DNA of 64,000 bases from Chloroflexota bacterium (GTDB lineage: Bacteria > Chloroflexota > Dehalococcoidia > JACPQK01). A program made the position numbers and the translations under genes. The stretch is taken from NCBI GenBank assembly GCA_016190505.1, contig JACPQM010000023.1, positions 2,877-66,876 of the forward strand, given 5' to 3'. Positions 38,727 to 50,788 of this stretch are shown here, piece after piece (the stretch's first letter is position 1; the number at the start of each line of letters is the position of its first letter). Below the pieces are notes generated by a model. That model was not told where the DNA came from. It worked only from the letters and a program-made list of their open reading frames with translations, and searched no databases.

Positions 38727-40595
38727 TCAATGTCGCCCGAACTCGCGCTCGAGCTGCGCCTGGCTCAGGTGAAGCATGATGGGCCGGCCATGGGGACAGG
38801 TGCGTGGGGACTCGCAGGCCTCCAGTTCGCGCAGCAGGCCCCGCATCTCCTGGTCGCCCAGGGACTGACCGGCTTTGACCGCGCCATGGCAGGCCAGGGA
38901 TATGGCGATGGCGTCGGCCCAATCGCCAGGGGAACCTGCCTTGAGGGTGTCCAGGAGGTCTGGGAGCACCCGGGCGACGTCTTTGCCCGCCAGGACAGCG
39001 GGCACCGACCGCACCAGGTACGTTCGGTCGCCGAAGTGCTCGATGTCGAAGCCATAGGCGGCCAGGGCCGCCCGCTGCTCTTCGAGTCCCGAATCTCGGG
39101 AATGGGGCGATAGCTCCACAGTGGCTGGCTGGAGCATGCCCTGGACCTGGGGCTGCCGGCGCTTCTGCTGTGACCGGAGCTGCTCGTAGAGCACGCGCTC
39201 GTGGGCGGCGTGCTGGTCCACCAGGTACACTCCGTCCGGCCCTTCGGCCACGATGTAGGTGCTGGCAATCTGGCCCATGACCCGGAGCACAGGCAGCCGG
39301 GCCGTGACTGCGGGTGCCGGCGAGGCCGCAGCCGGGGGGCCGCTAGCGGCGCCTGGTGGGGCTGGAACGGGCGCCTGTGGCGAGCGCCAGTATTGGGGGG
39401 CCAGGGCGTCGGGCAACATGCCCTGAGTGGGCTGGGCATGCAGTGCCAGCGGCGGAGGCGGCGCCCAGGGCCTGCCTTGGCCGGGGTCCAGTCCTGATCG
39501 GTCGGCTCGGTCCCATCCGTCGGGTCCGTCCGATCGGTGGTGAGGGGGGGACTCAAACGGCGGCGGCACCCGCAGGCTGGGCACCGGCGCATGGCGATTG
39601 AGGGTGGCCGCCACCGCCTCTTTGACCGCAACGAACACGGCCGACTCCAGGCGGAAGCGCACCTCGCGCTTGGCGGGGTGGACGTTAACGTCCACCTCTG
39701 CTGGTGGGAGGGCCAGGTGCAGGATGGCGATGGGGTGGCGCCCCACCATCAGGTGTGTCCGGTAGGCCTCGGCGACGGCCGCGCGCAGGCTGCCGCTGTG
39801 CACCCAGCGCCGGTTGACGAAGGTGCTGATGTGCGCGGGGCTGGCCCGGCTCAGTGAGGGCGGGCTGACCAGCCCCCACAGCCGGGGCCGGGCCGTGGGC
39901 ACCTCGCCCTCCTGCGTTACACTGTCTACTTCGAGCAAGGCGCCCGCAACCTCCGCCGAATAGACCGCGGCGGCCACCTCGCGGAGCTGTCCACTGCCCG
40001 GCGAACGGAACGCCTCGCGGCCATCGAGCAGCAGGACGAAGGCCACCTCGGGGAAGGCCAGGGCGTACTGGTGGACCAGGCTAGAGATGTGGCCGCCCTC
40101 GGTGGCCGCCGAGCGCAGGAACTTGAGCCGGGCGGGCAAATGGTGGAAAAGCTGGCGCACCGTCACCGTGGTGCCCACGGGGCAGGCAGCCTTGCCTTTC
40201 TGGATCGTGGCCCCACCCTGGATCTGCACCTGGTAGCCGGCCATCTCGTTGGCGGTGCGGGTCACCAGCCGGACCTCGGCCACGGCGGCGATGGAAGGCA
40301 GCGCCTCGCCCCGGAAGCCCAGGGTGACGATGGCCTCCAGGTCCCTGTCAGACGAAAGCTTGCTGGTGGCATGGCGGTGGAAGGCCAGCTCAACCTCGTG
40401 GGAGGGGATGCCGCCGCCGTCGTCGGTGATGCGGATAAGCTGGAGGCCACCGCCCCGTGCCTCGATGGTGATGTGATGGGTGCCGGCATCCAGGGAGTTC
40501 TCCAGCAGCTCCTTGACCACCGAGGCTGGGCGCTCCACCACCTCGCCGGCGGCGATCTTGGCGGCCACCTCAGGCGTCAGCACCTGTATAGGCAT
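38727..40595 (-). CDS. mutL: DNA mismatch repair protein MutL
   Basis: IAAGEVVERPASVVKEL, GFRGEAL, DVNVHP, DQHAAHER, CPHGRP. Confidence 0.98.
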   Translation of the reverse strand: MPIQVLTPEVAAKIAAGEVVERPASVVKELLENSLDAGTHHITIEARGGGLQLIRITDDGGGIPSHEVELAFHRHATSKLSSDRDLEAIVTLGFRGEALPSIAAVAEVRLVTRTANEMAGYQVQIQGGATIQKGKAACPVGTTVTVRQLFHHLPARLKFLRSAATEGGHISSLVHQYALAFPEVAFVLLLDGREAFRSPGSGQLREVAAAVYSAEVAGALLEVDSVTQEGEVPTARPRLWGLVSPPSLSRASPAHISTFVNRRWVHSGSLRAAVAEAYRTHLMVGRHPIAILHLALPPAEVDVNVHPAKREVRFRLESAVFVAVKEAVAATLNRHAPVPSLRVPPPFESPPHHRSDGPDGWDRADRSGLDPGQGRPWAPPPPLALHAQPTQGMLPDALAPQYWRSPQAPVPAPPGAASGPPAAASPAPAVTARLPVLRVMGQIASTYIVAEGPDGVYLVDQHAAHERVLYEQLRSQQKRRQPQVQGMLQPATVELSPHSRDSGLEEQRAALAAYGFDIEHFGDRTYLVRSVPAVLAGKDVARVLPDLLDTLKAGSPGDWADAIAISLACHGAVKAGQSLGDQEMRGLLRELEACESPRTCPHGRPIMLHLSQAQLEREFGRH

Positions 40596-40627
40596 GCCTT
40601 CAGTTTACGCGACAGGGGGTATCTCCG

Positions 40628-41093
40628 GTAGGGGCAAGGCGCGCCATGCCCCTACGTTTGCCTGCCCACATGCGCCTTACCTCAGAGGGAATGGGTTCAG
40701 CCTGCAAACCGGGACCCACACCGGGGGCCGTAGGGGCAAGGCGTTGCCTTGCCCCACGTTTGTTCGACCCCACACGGCTTATCCTTGAAAAATGGGTCCA
40801 GGTTACAAACCCAATGCGCGTGATAGGCCGGTTGGCGGTGCACAGCGCGGGGGCAAGGCGCGCCATGCCCCTACGTTTGCCTGCCCATATCGCCTTACCC
40901 CAGAGGGAATGGGTTCAGCCTGCAAACCGGGACCCACACCGGGGGCCGTAGGGGCAAGGCGTTGCCTTGCCCCACGTTTGTTCGACCCCACACGGCTTAT
41001 CCTTGAAAAATGGGTCCAGGTTACAGACCCGAAGCCGCGTGATAGGCCGGTTGGCGGTGCACAGCGCGGGGGCATGGCGCGCCATGCCCCTAC
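40628..41093. repeat. Tandem duplication of an ~219-bp REP-containing unit (BIME-like)
   Basis: Unit restarts at about 40631, 40850 and 41069; two REP palindromes per unit. Confidence 0.9.
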
Positions 41094-41138
41094 CCATATA
41101 CAGCTTATCGTTGAAGAATCAGGCCAGTGGGTGGTGCA

Positions 41139-41582
41139 TTACCGGCGGCAGGGGATGGCCTCCAGGCGGGCGATGTAGTCCGGCGGCAGGCCGCGGGCGC
41201 GGGCGCCCCGCAGGATGCGCTCCATATAGTCCTTGCTGGGCAGGAACTTGCCTGTCCTGTGGGCGAAATAGACGACCGCCTGGTACTTGGTCCCGTCCTG
41301 GGCCACCACCTCGACCTCGCCCCGGCGGTAGGCGTAGGGCACGCCCTCCCACTTGTCCAATGCCGACAGGCCGGCCTCGTCCACCTCGTACAGGGCGCCC
41401 CAGACGGCGTCCTCCGGCGCCTCGACCATGTCGGCGGAGCCGCCCCTGCGCTGGGTGGAGTAGCGAGTGAAGGCCAAAGTGTAACCCTGGGCGGCGGCGG
41501 GGCGCAAGAACTTCGCCCCGGGACACCGCCGCCGCATCTGCACCGGGTCCATGTTAGAGGCGTAGGCAAAGTAGAGGGGCAT
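41139..41582 (-). CDS. Gamma-glutamylcyclotransferase family protein
   Basis: YFAYASNM, VWGALY, LDKWEG..Y, PS..Y. Confidence 0.88.
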   Translation of the reverse strand: MPLYFAYASNMDPVQMRRRCPGAKFLRPAAAQGYTLAFTRYSTQRRGGSADMVEAPEDAVWGALYEVDEAGLSALDKWEGVPYAYRRGEVEVVAQDGTKYQAVVYFAHRTGKFLPSKDYMERILRGARARGLPPDYIARLEAIPCRR

Positions 41583-41614
41583 ATCACCTCGATCCGCAGA
41601 TTCCACTGGGGTAC

Positions 41615-41745
41615 GGATTGCTTCGCTGCGCTCGCAATGACCTACTATGTGTCGTTGCGAGGCCCCACAGGGCCGAAGCAACCCGTACCCCTGGCCGTGA
41701 GTGGAGAGAACGGGTTGCTTCGCCCGCCTCGGGCTGGCTCGCAAA
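41615..41745. repeat. GTCATTGCGAG-type REP-like cluster
   Basis: gattgcttcgctgcgctcgcaatgac and related units. Confidence 0.7.
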
Positions 41746-41798
41746 GACAAAACACTCCTCATCAACCTTCAATAACAACCGTTGGATGTCATTCTGGT

Positions 41799-41876
41799 TG
41801 CCTGGAGCTCATACAGCTTGGTGAGGGCTTCCAGCGGGGTCATGGCGTCTACCTCCAGGTGGGCCAATTCCTCTAC
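41799..41876 (-). pseudogene. mutS 3'-end remnant (copy C)
   Basis: Translates VEELAHLEVDAMTPLEALTKLYELQA versus LEELSRLELDALTPLEALTKLYELQA in intact MutS. Confidence 0.9.
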
Positions 41877-41889
41877 ATTTGACAGGAGT

Positions 41890-42579
41890 CTACTGTGCTG
41901 GGAAGAGGCCAAGCTCTACAGCCAGGTCGTAGACCGTCACCGATAAGCCGGATACATTGGCGCCTATGCGATAGGCTGTATCGTCAAAGCTCCGGGCGCT
42001 GAATACCCATCGCAGTTTTTGCCAGGTCAAAGACTCGTCGAGAGATTGCGGCCCCGGGTAGCCAGTCTTGACCACATGGACCGCTGGAGCGCCCCGGAAG
42101 GTGGCATTGGCCGTACCCAAGGCGTCTTTCGCATCCTGCTCCGAGCCGTATCGCTCAATGGACAGCGACCTGGAATGGCCAGCCGCAGTCATAATGTTGG
42201 CAGAAACACCGTTGGCGACGCATCTCAAGTCACGTTGTAGGAACAGTGTGTCGGCTAGCTCCGGCATAGCACGCAACACGATCCTGCTCTCAACCTCGAA
42301 GCTGGGGCAGGGCTGTAGAGGAGTGGCAGCCGGCGTGGAAGTGGGCGTAGGCTTAGGAGTAGGCGTAGGGGTCGGCTTGGGTGTAGGCGTTGGTGTGGGC
42401 ACAGGCGTGGGAGTAGGTGGGGGTACTGGCGTAGCAGCAGGTAGCGACGTGGGACTTGGCGGTGGGACTGGCGTATCAGTGGGCACGCCCGTCGGGGTAG
42501 CTGGGGGCTGACAAGCCCCGAGCACAGCCGCTAGTCCGAGCAACGTACACACCAGGATGCCATTGTGGTTCTTGAGCAT
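41890..42579 (-). CDS. Putative lipoprotein with Pro/Thr-rich linker
   Basis: Signal peptide with LGAC lipobox, then (PT)n repeats. Confidence 0.8.
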   Translation of the reverse strand: MLKNHNGILVCTLLGLAAVLGACQPPATPTGVPTDTPVPPPSPTSLPAATPVPPPTPTPVPTPTPTPKPTPTPTPKPTPTSTPAATPLQPCPSFEVESRIVLRAMPELADTLFLQRDLRCVANGVSANIMTAAGHSRSLSIERYGSEQDAKDALGTANATFRGAPAVHVVKTGYPGPQSLDESLTWQKLRWVFSARSFDDTAYRIGANVSGLSVTVYDLAVELGLFPAQ

Positions 42580-42580
42580 C

Positions 42581-42649
42581 TTAGCCCCCTTTCGCCCTCG
42601 CCTGTAGCTCGTACAGCTTGGTGAGGGCCTCCAGCGGGGTCATGGCGTC
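42581..42649 (-). pseudogene. mutS 3'-end remnant (copy B)
   Basis: 42590-42649 matches 43107-43166 at 56/60 nt; reads DAMTPLEALTKLYELQARAKGG*. Confidence 0.92.
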
Positions 42650-42885
42650 GGAGTGGAGGTGGGACAGCTACGCCGCCGCTCGTACTCCTCACAGGTCACC
42701 GTGCCCTCTGTGTCGGCCAGGGCCTTTGTGCCCTCTTGGACGTCCTCGGCGTCTTCCAGCACTTCCAGGGCGGCATCTCGGATGACCCTGGCCATGGACG
42801 TGTGTCGCTCGTAGGCCAGGCGGCGCAGGCGTTCGTGTTGATCTGCGGTCAGGAAGGTGGTGGCGCGCCTGAAGTTTGTGGCCAT
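42640..42885 (-). CDS. RHH/CopG-like putative antitoxin (orphan, runs into mutS remnant)
   Basis: RRATTFLT..HERLRRLA..LEDAED; homologous to 46685-46885. Confidence 0.65.
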   Translation of the reverse strand: MATNFRRATTFLTADQHERLRRLAYERHTSMARVIRDAALEVLEDAEDVQEGTKALADTEGTVTCEEYERRRSCPTSTPTP

Positions 42886-42953
42886 TACATCTCACCTTGG
42901 TCGCAGGATAGCATATATATGTTACCATGCCTCGGAGGGGACGCTTTCCTCCT

Positions 42954-43057
42954 GTCATTCTGAGTCCCGACGCATCGGGACGAAGAATCCGTAGCCCTTG
43001 GTTCTGCAAAACGCCGAGATACGGATTCTTCGGTCGCTGCGCTCCCTCAGAATGACA
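42954..43057. repeat. GTCATTCTGAG...CTCAGAATGAC REP doublet
   Basis: Terminal inverted repeat; left arm shared with 20347. Confidence 0.8.
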
Positions 43058-43097
43058 TGGAATATCGCCTTTTCTGCTCAATAGGCACAAGGTGCGC

Positions 43098-45818
43098 CTA
43101 GGGCTGTTTCGCCCTCGCCTGTAGCTCATAGAGCTTGGTGAGGGCTTCCAGCGGGGTCAGGGCGTCCAGCTCCAGGCGGGAGAGCTCTTCCAGCAGCTCG
43201 TGGTGGGGAGGGAACAGTGGCAACTGGGGCGGGCGCTCGCGGCGACGGGTCCGACTAGGGCCGGACTGGTCGCGGCTGGCCTCTAGCTCGGAGAGGATCT
43301 CCTCGGCCCGCTGGACCACGGGCCGGGGCAGGCCGGCCAGCCGAGCAACGTGGATGCCGTAGGACCTGTCGGCGCCGCCTGGTATCACCTGGCGCAGGAA
43401 CACCACCTGGCCCCCCTCGTCGCTCACCGCCATCTGCAGGTTCCGCACCCGCGGCAGGTAGCGGGCCAGCTCGGTAAGCTCGTGGTAGTGGGTGGCGAAC
43501 ACCGTGCGCGCCCCCAGGCGGGGGTGGTTGTGGATGAACTCGGCCACGGCGCGGGCAATGGAGATGCCATCGTAGGTGGAGGTGCCCCGGCCAATCTCGT
43601 CCAGCACCAGCAGCGAGCGCGGGGTGGCCTGGTTCAGGATGGCGGCGGTCTCCATCATCTCCACCAGGAACGTGGAGCGGCCCAGGGCGAGGTCGTCGCG
43701 GGCGCCCACCCGGGTGAAGATGCGGTCCACCAGGCCGATGCTGGCCGCACGGGCGGGGACGAAGCTGCCTACCTGGGCCATGAGCACCATGAGGGCCACC
43801 TGGCGCAGGTAGGTGCTCTTGCCCGACATGTTGGGCCCGGTGAGCACCAGGAGCTGCGCATCCCGGCAGGCGAGGTGGACGTCGTTGGGGACGAAGGGGT
43901 CGCTGGTGCTCCGTTCCACCACGGGGTGGCGCCCGACCTCGATGGTCAGGGTGTCGCCCTCGTTCAGCTCGGGGCGGATGTAGCCGTAGCGGGCCGCTGC
44001 CTCAGCCAGGGCGGAGAGCACGTCGAGTTGGGCGATGGCCGACGCCGTGGCCAGCAGCTCGGCGCCAGCCGCCCCGACCTGGGCGCACACCTGGCGGAAC
44101 AGGCTGGCCTCCAGGTCGCTCATGCGCTCCTGGGCGGTGAGCACCAGGGACTCGTACTCCTTCAGCTCGGGGGTGTAGAAGCGCTCCGCCCCCACCAGCG
44201 TCTGTTTGCGGATGTAGTGGGCGGGCACGCGCTCCAAATGGGCGTTGGTCACCTCGATGTAGTAGCCGAAGACCTTGTTGTAGCCCACCTTGAGGGAGCG
44301 GATGCCGGTGCGCTCCCGCTCCACGCTCTCCAGGTTGGCCAGGTAGTCGCGGGCGCCCCGGGAGGACGAGCGTAGCTCGTCCAACTCCGGGGAGAAGCCC
44401 TCCCGGATCAGGCCGCCCTCGGTGGCTGTCGGTGGAGGGTCGTCCACGATGGCCTTCTCCACAAGCTCGGCTAGCTCGGTGTGAGGTCGCAGGAGCGCTA
44501 GCAGGGGGGCCAGAGGCTGTCCCGGACCTGCTGCCGGGGCTGCAGTGTGGACCTCACCCTCACCCTGCCCTCTCCCATCGAGGGAGAGGGGAACCCCTCT
44601 CTCCCCTGGAGGGAGAGAGTTGGAGAGAGGGGGAGGTTCGCTGCCCAACACGCGTTCTGTCCCCACCCCACGCGCTGCATCCGCCGGGGCCAGTGCCTCG
44701 CGCAGGCGGGGGATGGCCTCCAGGGTGCGCCGCAGCGCGAGCAGCTCTCGGGGCGATACCATCCCGACTTGTCGGGACCGGATTCGGTTGACCAGCCGCT
44801 CCAGGTCGGCCAGCGGGCCCAGGATGGAGGCGGCCTGTGCCCGCTCCAGGGAGTGGGCATGGAGCCAGGCCACGGCGTCCAGCCGGGCATTGAGCTGGGC
44901 CAGGTCCAGCAGAGGTTGCCCGAGCCAACGCTTGAGCAACCGTCCGCCCATTGCGGTGCGGGTGAGGTCCAGGACGTGCAGTAGCGAGTGTCCCGACTTG
45001 TCGGGACCTTCGGGGAAGACGTCCAGGTTGTGCCGGGTCTGGGCGTCCAGCAGCATGTACTGCCCCGTGGAGTAGGTGGCCAGCCCGGTGAGCTGGCTGA
45101 GGGCGCCCTTCTGGGTCTCTTCCAGGTAGTGGAGGATGGCCCCCGCCGCGCAGACCGCCAGGGGCAATCCCTGGCAGCCGAAGCTGTCCAGGGAAGCGAC
45201 CTGGAATTGCCGCAGCAGCCGCTCCTGGGCGGCATCTGGCTCGAAGGCCGGCGCGGGAAGGGGGGTGACGATGGCTGAGGTCTGGGGCGGCTCCCCTCCG
45301 AAAGGTGTGAGCACCTCGGCGGGGTGCAGCCGATCCAGCTCGGCGGCAAGTTGGGCTACTGGCAACTGCGTGGCGGCGAACTCGCCGGTGGTGATGTCGG
45401 CGTAGGCAACGCCAGCCTGTTCGCCCTCAACCACCACGGCGCAGAGGTAGTTGTTGGACTTCTGCTCCAGCATGGCAGGCTCGACCACGGTGCCCGGCGT
45501 GACCACGCGCACCACGTCGCGCTCCACCAGTCCCCTGCCCGGCTCGGTAAGCTGCTCGCAGAGGGCCACCTTGTAGCCCCTGGCGATGAGCTTGGCCAGG
45601 TAGGAGTCCAGGGCGTGGTAGGGGATCCCCGCCATGGGCACCCTTTGTCCTTTGCCCATCTCGCGGCCGGTGAGGGTGATCTCCAGCTCGCGGGCGGCGA
45701 TGCGGGCGTCCTCCTCGAAGGTCTCGTAGAAGTCGCCCAGCCGGAAAAAGAGGATAGCGTTGGGGTGCTGCTGCTTGACGCGCAGGTACTGGCGGCGGAG
45801 GGGGGTGACGTCGGACAT
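43098..45818 (-). CDS. mutS: DNA mismatch repair protein MutS
   Basis: FFRLGDFYE, GRHPVVE, TGPNMSGKST, DEIGRGTST, ATHYHEL, SYGIHVA. Confidence 0.98.
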   Translation of the reverse strand: MSDVTPLRRQYLRVKQQHPNAILFFRLGDFYETFEEDARIAARELEITLTGREMGKGQRVPMAGIPYHALDSYLAKLIARGYKVALCEQLTEPGRGLVERDVVRVVTPGTVVEPAMLEQKSNNYLCAVVVEGEQAGVAYADITTGEFAATQLPVAQLAAELDRLHPAEVLTPFGGEPPQTSAIVTPLPAPAFEPDAAQERLLRQFQVASLDSFGCQGLPLAVCAAGAILHYLEETQKGALSQLTGLATYSTGQYMLLDAQTRHNLDVFPEGPDKSGHSLLHVLDLTRTAMGGRLLKRWLGQPLLDLAQLNARLDAVAWLHAHSLERAQAASILGPLADLERLVNRIRSRQVGMVSPRELLALRRTLEAIPRLREALAPADAARGVGTERVLGSEPPPLSNSLPPGERGVPLSLDGRGQGEGEVHTAAPAAGPGQPLAPLLALLRPHTELAELVEKAIVDDPPPTATEGGLIREGFSPELDELRSSSRGARDYLANLESVERERTGIRSLKVGYNKVFGYYIEVTNAHLERVPAHYIRKQTLVGAERFYTPELKEYESLVLTAQERMSDLEASLFRQVCAQVGAAGAELLATASAIAQLDVLSALAEAAARYGYIRPELNEGDTLTIEVGRHPVVERSTSDPFVPNDVHLACRDAQLLVLTGPNMSGKSTYLRQVALMVLMAQVGSFVPARAASIGLVDRIFTRVGARDDLALGRSTFLVEMMETAAILNQATPRSLLVLDEIGRGTSTYDGISIARAVAEFIHNHPRLGARTVFATHYHELTELARYLPRVRNLQMAVSDEGGQVVFLRQVIPGGADRSYGIHVARLAGLPRPVVQRAEEILSELEASRDQSGPSRTRRRERPPQLPLFPPHHELLEELSRLELDALTPLEALTKLYELQARAKQP
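44553..44636. repeat. REP-like element lying in frame within mutS
   Basis: ccctcaccctgccctctcccatcgagggagagggg, same family as intergenic 53640 and 54305. Confidence 0.8.
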
Positions 45819-45866: not shown

Positions 45867-46121
45867 TTAGCGGTAGACCTCACGGCGGTGGCCGACGGCG
45901 GAGACGATGACTAGGCCATTCGCGTCATCCACCGTGTAGAGTAGCCGGTAGTCGCCGAGGCGAAGCCGATACTCCTGTCGCCCCCTCAGCTTCCTGGCAC
46001 CTGAAGGGCGCGGGTTGATTTCCAAGGATAGTATTAGGCGACTAACTCGGGCGTGGGTGGTCGCAGGAAGTCTGTTCATTTCCTTTTGGGCGTCTCGAAG
46101 GATATGGAGAGTATAGGTCAC
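45867..46121 (-). CDS. RelE/ParE family toxin
   Basis: NPRPSGARKLRG..YRLRLGDYRLLY..VGHRREVY. Confidence 0.92.
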   Translation of the reverse strand: MTYTLHILRDAQKEMNRLPATTHARVSRLILSLEINPRPSGARKLRGRQEYRLRLGDYRLLYTVDDANGLVIVSAVGHRREVYR

Positions 46122-46330
46122 CGCCGACTCTGGGCTCTATACTCGTCCAAGTATTCCCGAAATGGCCGGGAAGGCTGGCCCCGCCGCTGCCGGATGAGGG
46201 CAATGTCCAGGATGTCCTCTCGCAGCTTCGGATCATCCAAGAGCCGGGAGATGACGGCGTCCCGCTCCGCTTTAGGCAGGGCTTGCAGCGCCATAAGGAA
46301 CACTTCCGCCTTGGATTCGATGGTGGTCAT
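46118..46330 (-). CDS. Antitoxin partner of the RelE toxin
   Basis: Coupled upstream ORF; LREDILD..PSRPF. Confidence 0.7.
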   Translation of the reverse strand: MTTIESKAEVFLMALQALPKAERDAVISRLLDDPKLREDILDIALIRQRRGQPSRPFREYLDEYRAQSRR

Positions 46331-46352
46331 CAATGCTCCCTCCTTGCCTTCA

Positions 46353-46553
46353 CTACGTCCGCGCTAGGGCCCACTTCTTTTCCAGGCGCGCCTTGACCGG
46401 TTCCCAGGGCTCAGAAGGCTCGTCTCGTCTTTCGGCAATGGTGGCCAAGTCCTCCAAGTCCTCAAGCAGCGCCTGGTACTCACGAAGGGGCAGTAGGACA
46501 GCGGTCCGCCGACCCTTCTGAGTGACGACAAAACGTTTGCGTTCAACAGCCAT
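46353..46553 (-). CDS. Putative antitoxin (orphan)
   Basis: FVV..KGRRTAVLLP..EYQALLEDLEDL..RRDEP..PWE.VK. Confidence 0.75.
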   Translation of the reverse strand: MAVERKRFVVTQKGRRTAVLLPLREYQALLEDLEDLATIAERRDEPSEPWEPVKARLEKKWALART

Positions 46554-46684
46554 AACACGGTCTCCTGTTGAGCCATTGTAGCAGGGACAGGTAGTAGAAA
46601 CTACGGCCTACGTTGCTTGGCTAAGCGCGACGAGTGGGCGGGTCGACAGCATACATATGTTAGTATGGAAAGAGGTGAAGCATT

Positions 46685-46885
46685 ATGGCCACTAATCTGA
46701 AGCGGACCACAGTCTTTCTGACCCCAGAGCTACACGAGCGGCTGCGCCGCCTGGCCTTTGAGAACCGGACGTCAATAGCTGCCCTGATGCGGGAGGCCAC
46801 CCTGGAGTTCCTGGAAGAGGCCGAGGACATCCACCTGGGGGCCAAGGCACAGGCCGAGGAAGAGTACGTCGAGGTCTACCAGTAG
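46685..46885 (+). CDS. RHH/CopG-like putative antitoxin (orphan)
   Basis: MATNLKRTTVFLTPELHERLRRLAFE; SD GAGGTG. Confidence 0.65.
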   Translation: MATNLKRTTVFLTPELHERLRRLAFENRTSIAALMREATLEFLEEAEDIHLGAKAQAEEEYVEVYQ

Positions 46886-46930
46886 CTCAGTAGGGCTATT
46901 ATCCCAGAGGCACCGCTGTCGGTCGGCGGC

Positions 46931-47383
46931 TCACCTGGCCAGGGGTTCCAGGTCGAAGTCCGGGGCAAACGGATTGATGAACCGGACGCCTTCCAACAGC
47001 CGGCCATGCTGAAAGTCCTCGCTCAGGACAGTGGGGACCCGATTCAGCTTGGCGGTGGCCCATATCAGGCCATCCCAGTAGCTCATCTGATAGCGGCCAC
47101 TGGCTTGCGCCGCTTCTCCGACTGTCCAGCCCGATATGCCATACACAACCCATGACCGCAGGAAACGGGCTACGCTCTGTTCGGCCTGTGCCGGCGACAA
47201 GGGCGAAGCGATACGGCACGTGGCTACATGATAGAACTCGCCCAGTACCTGGGTGCTAAGCGCACCGTTGCCAGCCGAGCGGATGCGCTCTAGTACATCC
47301 CGCGCCCGCTGCCGCTTCCTGTGGTCGGCAGTGTCGTAGCGATAGACCAGCACATTAGTGTCGACGAGATAGGCGATCGTCAT
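46931..47383 (-). CDS. PIN-domain (VapC-like) toxin
   Basis: LVDTNVLVY, STQVLGEF, SYWDGLI, LSEDFQHG, INPF. Confidence 0.9.
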   Translation of the reverse strand: MTIAYLVDTNVLVYRYDTADHRKRQRARDVLERIRSAGNGALSTQVLGEFYHVATCRIASPLSPAQAEQSVARFLRSWVVYGISGWTVGEAAQASGRYQMSYWDGLIWATAKLNRVPTVLSEDFQHGRLLEGVRFINPFAPDFDLEPLAR

Positions 47384-47630
47384 AGAGCTCGTCTCGGGTC
47401 CACGTGCGCTGGCCACCCGAGCTGGGCAGCTTGTCCCGCTCTCGCATGAAGGCCAATTCTTCCTCCCAGGCTTGGTGGTCGAGAATAGGTGTTTCGCCGC
47501 GGGCCAGGGCCAGGTCTACTCCCTGGCGGATGAGCTCTGCCTCGGACACCCCTCGCTCCTTGGCCAGCGCCTTGAGCCGCTTCTGTTGCTCTACCTCGAT
47601 ATACACTTGTTTTCTTACCATGCGCGCCAT
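47355..47630 (-). CDS. CopG-like antitoxin
   Basis: MVRKQVYI..LK.LAKERGVSEAELIR..WTRDELY. Confidence 0.85.
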   Translation of the reverse strand: MARMVRKQVYIEVEQQKRLKALAKERGVSEAELIRQGVDLALARGETPILDHQAWEEELAFMRERDKLPSSGGQRTWTRDELYDDRLSRRH

Positions 47631-47760
47631 AGCTTGCTCCCGCGGCGCTCGCAGCCTTGCCGCCGGCATGTCACGGTGACACACACACAACGTGAGGGCA
47701 AGGCAACGCCAGGGCAAGGCAACGCCTTGCCCCTACAGGATATAGGGCGTCGTGTTCTCT

Positions 47761-49233
47761 CTATCCTGCGCCTTTGCCCTGTCTGGCCAGCCAGATGGTG
47801 GGTTGGGCCAGGCGCCACTGGTCGCACTTGAGGCAGCGGTTGGCCTCCTCCAGGGCCTGGGCCTCGGTGTAGCCAGTCTCCACCTCGTCGAAGCTGGCAC
47901 GCCGGCGCGACAGGGGGATGGAGGGCATAGGCACCCGCAGGCCCTCGGGGACGTTCTGGACGTCCTCGGCGGCGACTTTGTACTCGGGGGCCAGCGCCTC
48001 CTCAATGTTGCCGCTGCCGCCCAGCTCGATATCCATGGAGATGGCGGCCTGCCTCCCGTGGGCGATGGCCTCCACGAACGAGGCCGGTCCCAGGACGGCG
48101 TCGCCGCCGGAGAACACTCCCTGGCGGCTGACGGCCATGGTGGCCGGGTCGGCCTCGATGGTCCCCCGGCGGGTCAGGTTGACCCCCAGCTTGGGGGTGA
48201 CACGGGGCCGCTGGCCGATGGCTGCCAGCAGGCTGTCCATCTCGGTCCAGTACTCGGAGCCTACGATAGTAACAGGCCGGGGACGGCCGGTGGCGTCAGG
48301 CTCGCCCAGCTTCATACGGATGGCCTGGACCTTCAACCGCCCGTCGGCGGCGGCTATGCGGACGGGCGCGGCCAGGAACTCCAGCTTGACGCCCTCCAGA
48401 TCAGCGGCATCCACGTCAAAGTCGTGGGCCGGCATCTCGGCGCGGGTGCGCCGGTAGAGGATGGTCACGTCCCGGGCGCCCAGGCGCAGGGAGGCGCGGG
48501 CGCCGTCCACAGCCACGCAGCCGCCACCGACTACAATGACCCTGGCGCCCACCTGGACGCGCTCCCCGAGGTTCACCTTGCGCAGGAAGCTCACTGCATC
48601 GCTCACTCCGGGCAGGTCCTCACCCTCTACCATCAGGCCGCTGCCCTCCTGGGCGCCCAGGCCCAGGAACACGGCCTGGTAGTCCTGGCGGAGCAAATCC
48701 TCCACCGAGTCCACGGCCGTGTTCAGGCGGATGTCCACTCCTACCTCACCGAGCTGGGCCATCTCTTTGTCCAGGATGGTCCGGGGCAACCGGTAGAGGG
48801 GCATCCCCGTGCGCATGGTGCCGCCCAGGAAGGGAGTGGCCTCGAACAGGGTGACCGAGTGGCCCAGCTTGGCCAGGTAGTAGGCGCAGGCGAAGCCAGC
48901 GGGGCCGGAGCCGGCCACCGCTGCCTTTTTGCCGGTGGGGGGCAGGCGGTAGGCCCTGGCCCGCCATGAGCCATCGTCAAACTGGGCGCAGAAGCGCTTG
49001 AGGGCGTTGATGGCGATGGGCTGCTCCACCCGGCCCCGGCGGCATACGGTCTCGCAAGGGTGGTAGCATACGTGGCCGCAGATGTCGGGCAGGGGCATGC
49101 GCTCGCGCACCGCGGCCAGCGCCGCCGGGTAGTTGCGCTGGGTGATGAAACCGATGTACTTGGGGATGTCCAGGCCGGCGGGGCAGCCGCGGACGCAGGG
49201 GGCAACAAGACGGCGCACCGGTAGTGTAGTCAT
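47761..49233 (-). CDS. GltD/SfrB-like Fe-S flavoprotein, paralogue 2
   Basis: PC..CP, CG.VC..PCE..C, GSGPAG, GGG.VA.D, YRRT, GGD, RCLKC. Confidence 0.9.
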   Translation of the reverse strand: MTTLPVRRLVAPCVRGCPAGLDIPKYIGFITQRNYPAALAAVRERMPLPDICGHVCYHPCETVCRRGRVEQPIAINALKRFCAQFDDGSWRARAYRLPPTGKKAAVAGSGPAGFACAYYLAKLGHSVTLFEATPFLGGTMRTGMPLYRLPRTILDKEMAQLGEVGVDIRLNTAVDSVEDLLRQDYQAVFLGLGAQEGSGLMVEGEDLPGVSDAVSFLRKVNLGERVQVGARVIVVGGGCVAVDGARASLRLGARDVTILYRRTRAEMPAHDFDVDAADLEGVKLEFLAAPVRIAAADGRLKVQAIRMKLGEPDATGRPRPVTIVGSEYWTEMDSLLAAIGQRPRVTPKLGVNLTRRGTIEADPATMAVSRQGVFSGGDAVLGPASFVEAIAHGRQAAISMDIELGGSGNIEEALAPEYKVAAEDVQNVPEGLRVPMPSIPLSRRRASFDEVETGYTEAQALEEANRCLKCDQWRLAQPTIWLARQGKGAG

Positions 49234-49315
49234 GTCAACATCTTACCCCTCTTTCCCGCCCTTGGCTGCCCCGATGGTGGCCGGACCTATGGCAGGGCTA
49301 CCGCCAACTTCTCAG

Positions 49316-50788
49316 TCAGTCTGCCCCTTTACCTTTCCTGGCCAGCCAGAGCTTGGGCTGGGCCTGCTTCCATTGATCGCACTTGAGGCAGCGATGGGCC
49401 TCTTCGATAGCCTGCGCCTCGGAGTAGCCCAACTCCACAAGACCGAAGCTGCTGCACCGCTCGCCTCGGGTGATCTCCGCCACGTGCACGCGGGGACTGT
49501 CAGGCACCTCTGTTACGTCCTGGGGGCGGACGGCGTACTCCGGCGACAGGGCCTCCTCTATGTTGCCGTGGCCTCCAAGGTAAGCGTCCATGGAGGCTGC
49601 CGCCTTGCGGCCCTGGGCGACGGCCTCCGCGAACGAGGCGGGGCCCAGGACGACGTCGCCGCCGGAGAACACCCCGTCCCGGCTGGTAGCCAGAGTCTCG
49701 GCGTTGGCTTCCACGGTGCCCCATCGGGTGACGGTTATGCCTATCTGGCTGGGGACCTGGCAACGCTGGCCGATGGCTGCTAGCAGGGTGTCTACCTCCG
49801 TCCAGAACTCGGACCCCTCGAGGGGGACGGGGCGGGGGCGACCGGAGGCGTCGGGCTCGCCGAGCTGCATTCTGATGGACTGCACTTGGAGATGCCCGTC
49901 TGCCTGGCGCACCAGGACGGGGGCGGCCAGGAACTCGATGGTTATCCCTTCGCACTCGGTTGCCGCAATCTCAGCGACATCAGCCGGCATCTCGGCCCGG
50001 GTGCGCCGGTATAGCATAGTGACGTCTGTAGCCCCCAGACGCAGGGCTGTCCTGGCCGCATCCACCGCGACATTGCCCCCGCCCACTACCATCACCTTGG
50101 GGCCAACGGGAAGCTTCTCGCCCAGGTTGGCCTTGCCCAGGAAGGAGACGGCATCACTGACCCCCGCCAGTTCCTCCCCCTCGATGCTGAGCGAGCTGCC
50201 ATCCTGGGCTCCCAGCCCCAGAAAGACGGCCTGGTAGCCCTGGCCAAACAGCTCGTCTACAGATTCCACCGGGCTATTGAGCTTCAGGGTGACCCCCAGT
50301 TCCTCAAGCTGGGCTAGCTCCTTGTCCAGGATGGCCCTGGGCAACCGGAACCGGGGTATGCCCGTGCGCAACATGCCCCCGAGGAAGGGGTGGGCCTCAA
50401 AGATAGTCACGCAGTGGCCCAGCTTGGCCAGGTAGTAGGCGCAGGCGAAGCCCGCGGGACCGGAGCCTACCACGGCGGCTCTCATGCCGGCGAGGGGGCG
50501 CCGCGTCTCCCTTGCTCTCCAGGCCAGATCGTCCTGGTAGGCCACGAAGCGCTTCAGCTCCCGGATGGCAACGGGCTGGTCCACGCGGCCCCGGCGGCAC
50601 TCGTTCTCGCAGAGATGGAAGCAAATGTGCCCGCAGACGCCCGGAAGGGGCATACGCTCCCGGACCGTTGCTATGGCCGCCGAGTAGTTACCTTGAGCTA
50701 TGAATCCAACGTACTTGGGTATGTCTATGCCTAGTGGACATGCCCGCACACACGGGGCCACCAGGCGACGCACCGCCGCTGTGGTCAT
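49316..50788 (-). CDS. GltD/SfrB-like Fe-S flavoprotein, paralogue 1
   Basis: Same motifs; GGGNVAVDAAR..YRRT NADPH-type site. Confidence 0.9.
   Translation of the reverse strand: MTTAAVRRLVAPCVRACPLGIDIPKYVGFIAQGNYSAAIATVRERMPLPGVCGHICFHLCENECRRGRVDQPVAIRELKRFVAYQDDLAWRARETRRPLAGMRAAVVGSGPAGFACAYYLAKLGHCVTIFEAHPFLGGMLRTGIPRFRLPRAILDKELAQLEELGVTLKLNSPVESVDELFGQGYQAVFLGLGAQDGSSLSIEGEELAGVSDAVSFLGKANLGEKLPVGPKVMVVGGGNVAVDAARTALRLGATDVTMLYRRTRAEMPADVAEIAATECEGITIEFLAAPVLVRQADGHLQVQSIRMQLGEPDASGRPRPVPLEGSEFWTEVDTLLAAIGQRCQVPSQIGITVTRWGTVEANAETLATSRDGVFSGGDVVLGPASFAEAVAQGRKAAASMDAYLGGHGNIEEALSPEYAVRPQDVTEVPDSPRVHVAEITRGERCSSFGLVELGYSEAQAIEEAHRCLKCDQWKQAQPKLWLARKGKGAD

Follow-up and report, generated by a model that had tools for sequence, protein, structure and literature searches.

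Restriction-modification (R-M) genes can enter a chromosome with a long duplication of their target, an arrangement described mostly in naturally competent species (Furuta, Abe and Kobayashi 2010, PMC2853133). Displacement of a gene's C-terminal end by an incoming one is described for rhs loci (Jackson et al. 2009, PMC2935791) and for type VI secretion system (T6SS) effector-immunity arrays (Kirchberger et al. 2017, PMC5361080). The entry of integrase-free genes with a long duplication has been unsettled since these R-M and rhs cases, for which mechanisms are proposed without a natural demonstration. We analyzed a comparable locus in a 64,000-nt stretch of DNA (the window) from a Chloroflexota bacterium of the class Dehalococcoidia (GenBank assembly GCA_016190505.1, contig JACPQM010000023.1, positions 2,877 to 66,876). 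The 3' end of its mismatch repair gene mutS is present three times on the minus strand, and similar duplicated gene ends, which we call scars, occur at about 30 places of the same genome. The scars are a case of the known long target duplication or C-terminal displacement kind, and the mutS stack is not a new system. New here are the density of scars in one genome, their occurrence in both polarities, the toxin-antitoxin (TA) cargo, and the nested series of states.

As in the R-M long target duplications (PMC2853133), the insert is small (<20 kb), lacks a mobility gene, and lies within a unique direct repeat of variable length above 30 bp, and the cargo is of a selfish, addiction type; an empty-site state is seen at related mutS loci of other lineages. 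In contrast to the R-M cases, the cargo here is mostly TA, the start or stop of the host gene delimits the repeats, differences between copies are mainly silent, and about 30 loci, with stacks of two, are found in one genome. With the rhs and T6SS arrays the scars share an incoming end that pushes the resident end downstream, the newest unit beside the intact gene, and the lack of an integrase. What arrives in those arrays, however, is a non-homologous toxin tip, selected for its variety and paired with an immunity gene, whereas here a homologous, equivalent allele of the end of a housekeeping gene comes with unrelated cargo. Foreign DNA at the mutS-mutL junction is likewise known from SpyCI of Streptococcus pyogenes (PMC3430984, PMC4129442), a phage-like island that excises from and reintegrates at the start of mutL and switches mismatch repair. 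At our locus the cassettes are small, mutS is intact (906 aa), and the present sequence-based analysis shows neither a switch nor another effect of the stack on mismatch repair.

Read along the minus strand, mutS is followed by a repetitive extragenic palindromic (REP)-like repeat, an antitoxin-like open reading frame (ORF), mutS tail B, a predicted lipoprotein gene, mutS tail C, a second REP, a gamma-glutamylcyclotransferase (GGCT)-like gene, a REP array and mutL. The intact mutS (43098..45818; Pfam MutS I-V, NCBIfam mutS1 above cut-off) ends with the live tail, copy A (43098..43190), likely the newest end. Displaced tail B (42581..42669) retains its own stop, while tail C (41799..41873), likely the oldest, has lost the last codons and the stop. 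The three copies align in register at 43107-43186, 42590-42669 and 41790-41869, and form a direct repeat of 75-89 nt with exactly three copies in the genome. No copy of an own tail was found on the opposite strand at any of 68 related mutS loci or for any of 2,072 genes of this genome, and hence the three tails are not a matter of chance. The stop of tail B lies in the same register as that of live mutS; 2 nt further on, the lipoprotein begins with an ATG (42579) preceded by a G-rich run, and the end of B coincides with the expected ribosome site of the lipoprotein. The antitoxin-like ORF (42640..42885, minus strand, 81 aa) reads through into tail B, which replaces its last codons; its stop overlaps an ATG in B (42643). 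The initial annotation, made from the letters of this stretch alone, had described the threefold mutS end, the retained stop ahead of the lipoprotein and the antitoxin cut and fused into tail B, and all three descriptions stand.

In the 60 nt that begin with the D-A codons, tail B differs from the live tail at four positions, three of them synonymous and the fourth L/M. This recount agrees with the earlier figure, and the 60 nt are the part in which the tails are most alike. In a 51-nt core, every pair of tails is identical at 47 positions, with three synonymous and one nonsynonymous difference for live/B, the same for live/C, and four and none for B/C; the nonsynonymous change is L/M in both comparisons with the live end. 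The 27 nt preceding the core contain 13 (B) and 10 (C) differences from live mutS, many of them nonsynonymous. Against the live end, B and C have common states at H/R, M/L and one silent site. The cores agree among themselves at 47/51 positions, whereas their best score against the 142 other loci is 43-44/51, which points to close donors (relationships were judged by best identities rather than a tree, 51 nt being too short for one). Both dead tails contain an ATG at the same codon (B, 42581-42643; C, 41769-41843; minus strand). That of C has a good ribosome site ahead of it. As the ATG of B overlaps the antitoxin stop and the stop of B abuts the lipoprotein start, a 20-aa peptide could couple translation. 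A role of such translated tail peptides as a MutS regulator was considered and rejected: the M found here is common in live relatives, and the other scars have no such pattern.

The copies could in principle have been created by an assembly artefact or a strain chimera, which we consider extremely unlikely. This short-read metagenome-assembled genome (3.23 Mb, 100 contigs, 64% GC, 85% complete) yields no single record across the whole stack, no long reads were found, and unitigs break at the REPs. Against an artefact, Logan unitigs without differences tile 41614-41835, 41806-42982, 42968-43049, 43046-43339 and 43090-43400; in run X1 the unitigs over the locus have a depth of 64-70, the same as the flanks. 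One unitig of 1,177 nt, recovered in two runs, contains C, the lipoprotein gene, B and the antitoxin together. Moreover, the same architecture is seen in other genomes, including the single-contig G387. Most of the stretch was found in four groundwater runs of one study, possibly the source sample, whereas runs X5-X6 contain only its REPs; no RNA run with the stretch was among the runs listed.

We searched 2,072 genes of at least 450 nt, predicted with our own gene caller, for isolated short copies of their ends within 10 kb. The raw scan gave tail copies downstream on the same strand for 24 genes, upstream for 3 and on the opposite strand for none, and head copies upstream for 13 genes and downstream for 11. 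When one automatic rule was applied to all classes, tail copies were found downstream of 22 of the 2,072 genes and upstream of 1 (binomial test, P-value 6e–6). The initial annotation had treated the arrangement as peculiar to mutS; the scar is instead a genome-wide habit at about 30 places. Three of the 24 tail genes (a paralogue, a chance match inside an ORF, a REP) and five of the 13 head genes (paralogues, a shadow ORF) were dropped by eye before substitution analysis, which left 21 tail genes with 23 copies and 8 head genes with 9; one 320-nt tail was added later. Hosts of tail scars include clpB, a YifB/comM-type ATPase gene, argJ, radA, atpA, nuoN (two tails), uvrA and fdhA, and those of head scars thrS, serS, purD, lepA and trmO (two heads). 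At the non-mutS scars copies are 27-189 nt long, apart from the one of 320 nt. Over all scars, inserts measure 0.4-8.7 kb.

Double stacks similar to that of mutS occur at nuoN (two tails; G000:C59:40713-44312, L132) and trmO (two start copies; G000:C36:6315-8026, L111), both with TA cargo. The YifB/comM-type gene (G000:C31:28104-30488, L123 and beyond) has a 59-nt tail copy and an older broken one, which starts 542 nt before the gene end and lies 2.6 kb downstream. In six other genomes of the class, sampled as 80 spaced 20-kb segments with 1,125 genes in total, the same pipeline returned 2 genes with a downstream tail and 1 with an upstream head, versus 14 and 11 of 1,993 genes in the matching count for this genome (Fisher's test, P-value 0.065 for tails and 0.005 for both, on uncurated counts from genomes that are not independent). 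Hence, this genome is probably richer in scars, and the background elsewhere is not zero. Elsewhere in the class, tail scars were seen at uvrA (24 nt) and at a gene that we take from its sequence to be msrB-like (136 nt) (L277 in G236 and L167 in G340, respectively).

We next asked how the copies diverge from their live counterparts. Differences pooled over 32 copies number 65/66/157 at the three codon positions, and the ratio of nonsynonymous to synonymous substitution rates (dN/dS) comes to 0.28, with a bootstrap range across copies of 0.20-0.37. The ratio is below the value of 1 for pure decay and below the 0.5 expected when a gene end is duplicated and one copy then decays (P-value 6e–5). 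Both histories are thereby rejected, unless the live end was exchanged later. An equal divergence at all codon positions, which would have spoken against the proposal of the initial annotation that the tails were once functional mutS ends, was not seen, and the pooled ratio favors that proposal: the sequence comparison supports the dead tails as resembling formerly functional alleles. A dN/dS of 0.28 is well above the usual value for live alleles, and the excess fits decay on top. In 19 of 23 tail copies the likeness ends no more than 2 nt beyond the stop, and it extends >10 nt beyond the stop in only two; likeness that ends at the gene end is expected of alleles with different neighbors.

These data bear on a true long target duplication, in which an unrelated cassette becomes enclosed by copies of the resident's own gene end, made through repair or template switching, and later divergence reflects decay of the dead copy and allele exchange at the live one. 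This model accounts for how a cassette first arrives beside a new gene, and young copies with 97-100% identity agree with it. It is also the kind of event described for R-M genes (PMC2853133), and one scar of this genome holds an EcoRV-like R-M pair. Yet without later exchange it predicts a dN/dS of 0.5 rather than 0.28, and tails B and C, both dead, differ by four silent and no replacement changes in the core. It also sits poorly with the small number of copies, two of 23, that reach >10 nt past the stop, and with live and dead ends that have different last codons but a stop in the same register (mutS tail B, g809 and g1127). We regard resident copying as a rather unlikely explanation.

Related mutS loci provide intermediate states. 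An own-tail copy was found within 1.4 kb of mutS at 7 of 68 scored metagenome loci, several of them related, and weaker or more distant copies at L054, L070 and L106. A search of 401 class genomes (341 with a match, a tally that includes the unpublished G243), which is insensitive to short tails, gave eight other genomes with extra matches, three of them behind mutS: two tails in G096 (58 and 191 nt) and one each in G387 (192 nt) and G372 (59 nt). Across loci, mutS tails are about 20 to 205 nt long. Several loci can be paired as before and after states. At L032 the dead tail leads, through its stop, into the very gene that stands next to live mutS in L036/L037; the latter have the one-copy, empty-site state (in lineages other than that of this genome). 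The live end of L092 recurs at L106 as the first dead tail plus 97 nt, and the live end of L053 recurs at L092 as the first dead tail plus the start of relE. Likewise, the dead tail of L054 is identical to what L048/L103 have as their live end. The pairs retain resident end, stop and downstream gene, and two nested series are apparent (L053, L092, L106; and L048, L054). These pairs indicate that the resident end is displaced and that the newest cargo stands beside mutS, as the initial annotation had suggested; the comparison of mutS-mutL intervals that it called for revealed varying arrangements with nested states. The stacking order in the window itself would follow by analogy with the nested series of these other lineages. 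Tail erosion is also visible (L070 versus L089; L103 versus L073). The comparison has its limits in relatedness: no relative below class rank was present among the genomes compared, and the closest metagenome mutS has 62-68% identity. Two relatives, L034 (5258-6937) and L038 (6853-8532), contain a copy of the mutL start (44-57 nt) about 200 nt upstream of mutL; hence, in some relatives the mutS-mutL junction was entered from both sides.

It does not follow that mutS is a hotspot. Within one family and the same genomes, own-tail copies were found for mutS in 1 of 25, uvrA in 1 of 27, clpB in 0 of 26 and radA in 0 of 25 loci, where the single mutS case is the family's center genome, chosen for having a tail copy, and 3-12 loci per set were skipped for short flanks or partial matches. 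Class-wide, 0 of 25 mutS loci had an own-tail copy. The difference between 7 of 68 metagenome mutS loci and 1 of 78 others (P-value 0.025) comes from differing samples and does not show mutS as a hotspot.

For the mechanism, we give about an even chance to a scenario in which donor DNA consisting of a gene end and its cargo was integrated as a circle by one crossover, twice at mutS. A fragment comprising a gene end and a neighboring cassette would enter from a close relative, probably by natural transformation. Its trimmed ends would join into a small circle, or a circle would loop out between the live and dead tails of the donor. One crossover inside the gene end would then integrate the circle, leaving the gene whole with a new end and the cargo next to it, and pushing the earlier end behind the cargo with its own stop and downstream DNA. 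The dead end would subsequently erode through point changes and deletions. At mutS, the lipoprotein gene would have come first, stranding C, followed by REP and antitoxin, stranding B and losing the toxin. The uptake route, the circle and the single crossover are what we infer from the copies, their polarity, the silent-site bias, the integrase-free cargo and the before/after order in relatives. That only gene-end insertions are observed would be explained by the fact that insertions near a start or stop alone leave the gene intact. A circle with a single crossover was likewise proposed, without being shown, for rhs tips (PMC2935791). In an Escherichia coli assay for homology-facilitated illegitimate recombination (HFIR; PMC3240628), a single crossover of the recircularized donor had partially duplicated the homologous gene end in 56 of 60 clones; duplications were 109-950 bp long in 14 sequenced clones and about 10 times commoner than true HFIR. 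One-ended homology thus leads to a partial gene-end duplication there as here, but that assay used laboratory conjugation, an engineered plasmid and identical homology, whereas the present copies are natural, 75-100% identical and mostly shorter.

Several observations weigh against integration of circles. Polarity is weaker for head copies, which under the automatic rule lie upstream of 8 genes and downstream of 5. A low dN/dS could also result from allele exchange that affected the live gene later, and the young copies at g647, g2320 and g2890 (97-100% identical, ending at the stop) equally fit a resident self-copy. The live end of L032 runs into the start of the cargo rather than having a clean new stop. 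ComEC and DprA are encoded, but each also exceeds the cut-off in 10 of 14 control genomes and so proves little, and Ku, which could join ends, was not found in this 85%-complete genome. No tail-to-tail joint, as expected of a circle or excised form, is listed in six runs (contigs only). Finally, copies of 27-189 nt (one of 320 nt) are mostly about as long as, or shorter than, the homology that RecA requires at 80-90% identity, so that erosion of longer copies must be assumed.

The initial annotation had named HFIR as one candidate mechanism. Classical HFIR has a homologous anchor at one end and an illegitimate joint at the other, with which the geometry of the locus is compatible. Since the classical form yields a deletion (PMC3240628), whereas here resident DNA is kept and duplicated, only a variant of HFIR fits. 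In such a variant, which needs no circle, a linear donor strand would pair over mutS. Within the gene end, the resident strand that it displaces would be linked to its free cargo end, giving a live end of donor origin and a purely resident dead tail. The same polarity, allele-like divergence and cut cargo would result, the dead tails of relatives match before-state live ends through the stop, and an HFIR-like route was proposed for T6SS immunity arrays (PMC5361080). On the other hand, described HFIR products lose on average 1 kb of resident DNA (PMC3240628), and the mutS bodies of L032 and L037 are 84-98% identical throughout with no step in identity, in a pair not close enough for a good test. 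Strand joining of this type seems to us a minority possibility, behind the circular route.

The other candidate is site-specific integration in which a recombinase supplied in trans uses an attachment (att) site in mutS, and elements that lack an integrase accumulate in the style of cis-mobilizable elements (CIME) or ssrA islands; we consider it very unlikely. In its favor, tails B and C start within about 5 nt of each other, many relatives' mutS tails start 50-70 nt before the stop, and the genome has seven tyrosine recombinase matches. Dehalococcoides ssrA islands (McMurdie et al. 2011, PMC3146451), from the same class, also form tandem stacks behind a conserved gene with 3'-end repeats, and integration genes are absent from some of them. 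Those islands, however, use one target, a fixed 20-bp repeat with crossover and a DsiB serine integrase module, none of which is present here. In this genome about 30 unrelated target genes are scarred, and mutS tails vary from 20 to 205 nt. Inner borders of tail copies lie 27-195 nt from the stop with no common motif; a joint alignment of the 23 copies has no conserved base (best column 14/23 at a genomic GC content of 64%). By eye, independent mutS tails have unrelated flanks, and cargo is cut within a gene. None of the seven tyrosine recombinase matches is on the contig of the window (serine recombinases were not searched genome-wide). The initial annotation had noted that no integrase is present: a profile search found none in the two mutS cargo ORFs, and no integrase, transposase or recombinase family was found among the matches listed for 72 cargo ORFs at 29 non-mutS loci.

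Most of the cargo is of TA type. The antitoxin-like ORF at mutS has a weak DUF6290 match below cut-off and 34 other homologues. Its loss is confined to the last few codons, as 17 aligned homologues extend 2-10 residues beyond R72. A ParE/RelE-like gene stands directly behind the homologue at 40 of 46 loci that carry one; at mutS this toxin partner is gone. We also considered a mechanism encoded by the cassette and rejected it, since a gene-end scar was recognized at 0 of 29 scorable loci among these 46, none of which adjoins mutS. Nine antitoxin-homologue loci have straddling repeats, by eye REP-like, tRNA-like or intragenic. At L347 (3867-4531) and L353 (3919-4579), the same antitoxin-toxin pair lies between 25-30 nt copies of an apparent tRNA end, a tRNA version of the scar. 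The predicted lipoprotein (41890..42579, minus strand, 229 aa) has a lipobox-like Cys24, a Pro/Thr-rich linker and an orphan C-terminal domain. No Pfam or NCBIfam match was found for it; the homologue search returned only itself, with only unnamed look-alikes otherwise. Its GC content at third codon positions (GC3) is 0.63, under the genome 5th percentile of 0.68.

TA-type matches, some below cut-off, were found at 16 of 29 non-mutS loci (ParE, YoeB, Phd, MazEF, HicB, PIN, HepT/nucleotidyltransferase, and DUF433, DUF2283 and DUF4258, which we presume to be TA families). Homology expansion from the scar seeds brought the number of TA-like small genes to 106; they form 80 clusters, of which 18 lie inside a scar. 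A TA-like gene is present within 1 kb of 11 of 21 scar tail genes versus 63 of 2,051 others, a contrast inflated by seeds taken from scars. R-M cargo is present at 1 of 29 non-mutS loci: an EcoRV-like restriction enzyme and a D12 methyltransferase lie within a 175-nt tail duplication (G000:C34:95682-99788, L125), which corresponds directly to the R-M long target duplication in the literature. The persistence of TA cargo between direct repeats may be due to addiction. We found no published account of TA cassettes with gene-end duplications in Chloroflexota in open papers.

These scars at both gene ends, with their silent-site bias and nested states, form a natural series that can separate models of circle integration, strand joining and resident copying. 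They suggest a host-recombination route for many of the TA genes that lie between housekeeping genes in these groundwater bacteria. A bolder and rather doubtful extension is that integrase-free circles of a housekeeping gene end and a TA cassette are a self-renewing mobile unit in Dehalococcoidia. They might loop out, be taken up by competent neighbors, re-enter the same gene end and be held by addiction, and would then be a main route of TA accretion, as 18 of 80 clusters inside a scar could hint. The mutS-mutL junction might be a favored entry because mismatch repair mutants accept diverged DNA and would be rescued by an incoming mutS. That incoming alleles can rescue mutS mutants is an idea from the literature on enterobacteria.

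REPs are frequent around the stack. The one behind live mutS (42953..43057, ends taken from loose contig ends) is inverted repeat I17 with 49 blastn matches in the genome. A 10-nt match to its outer arm behind tail C (41787..41796, minus strand) is a possible remnant of a deleted REP, with chance possible at this length. A second family (41608..41748; inverted repeats I16 and I23) has 65 blastn matches, and a tandem array of a third (40627..41094; repeats D1, D4 and D6) has 213. No Rfam match was found at the locus, the REP behind live mutS included. Within mutS itself, an in-frame REP-like repeat (44545-44640, minus strand; 54 blastn matches) adds a low-complexity insert to domain III. We considered insertion driven by REPs and REP-associated tyrosine transposases (RAYT) and rejected it, since REPs are not enriched at cassette borders: a REP lies within 200 nt of the stop in 6 of 21 scar genes versus 405 of 2,072 genes, and 8 of 23 copies have one inside their cargo.

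No promoter- or terminator-like site was found at the locus. Beyond the second REP lie the GGCT-like gene (41139..41582, minus strand; Pfam AIG2_2/GGACT), with a host-like GC3 of 0.93, and mutL (38727..40595, minus strand, 622 aa; Pfam MutL_C and DNA_mis_repair). Upstream of mutS is a TA gene cluster (45867-47717) that consists of a ParE pair, a Phd-like orphan, a second member of the ribbon-helix-helix (RHH) family of the antitoxin at mutS (46685-46885, plus strand, 58% identical), for which no toxin was seen, and a PIN/RHH pair. The cluster is followed by two tandem paralogues of about 490 aa each (47761-50788, minus strand), which from their sequence are flavin/Fe-S oxidoreductase-like.

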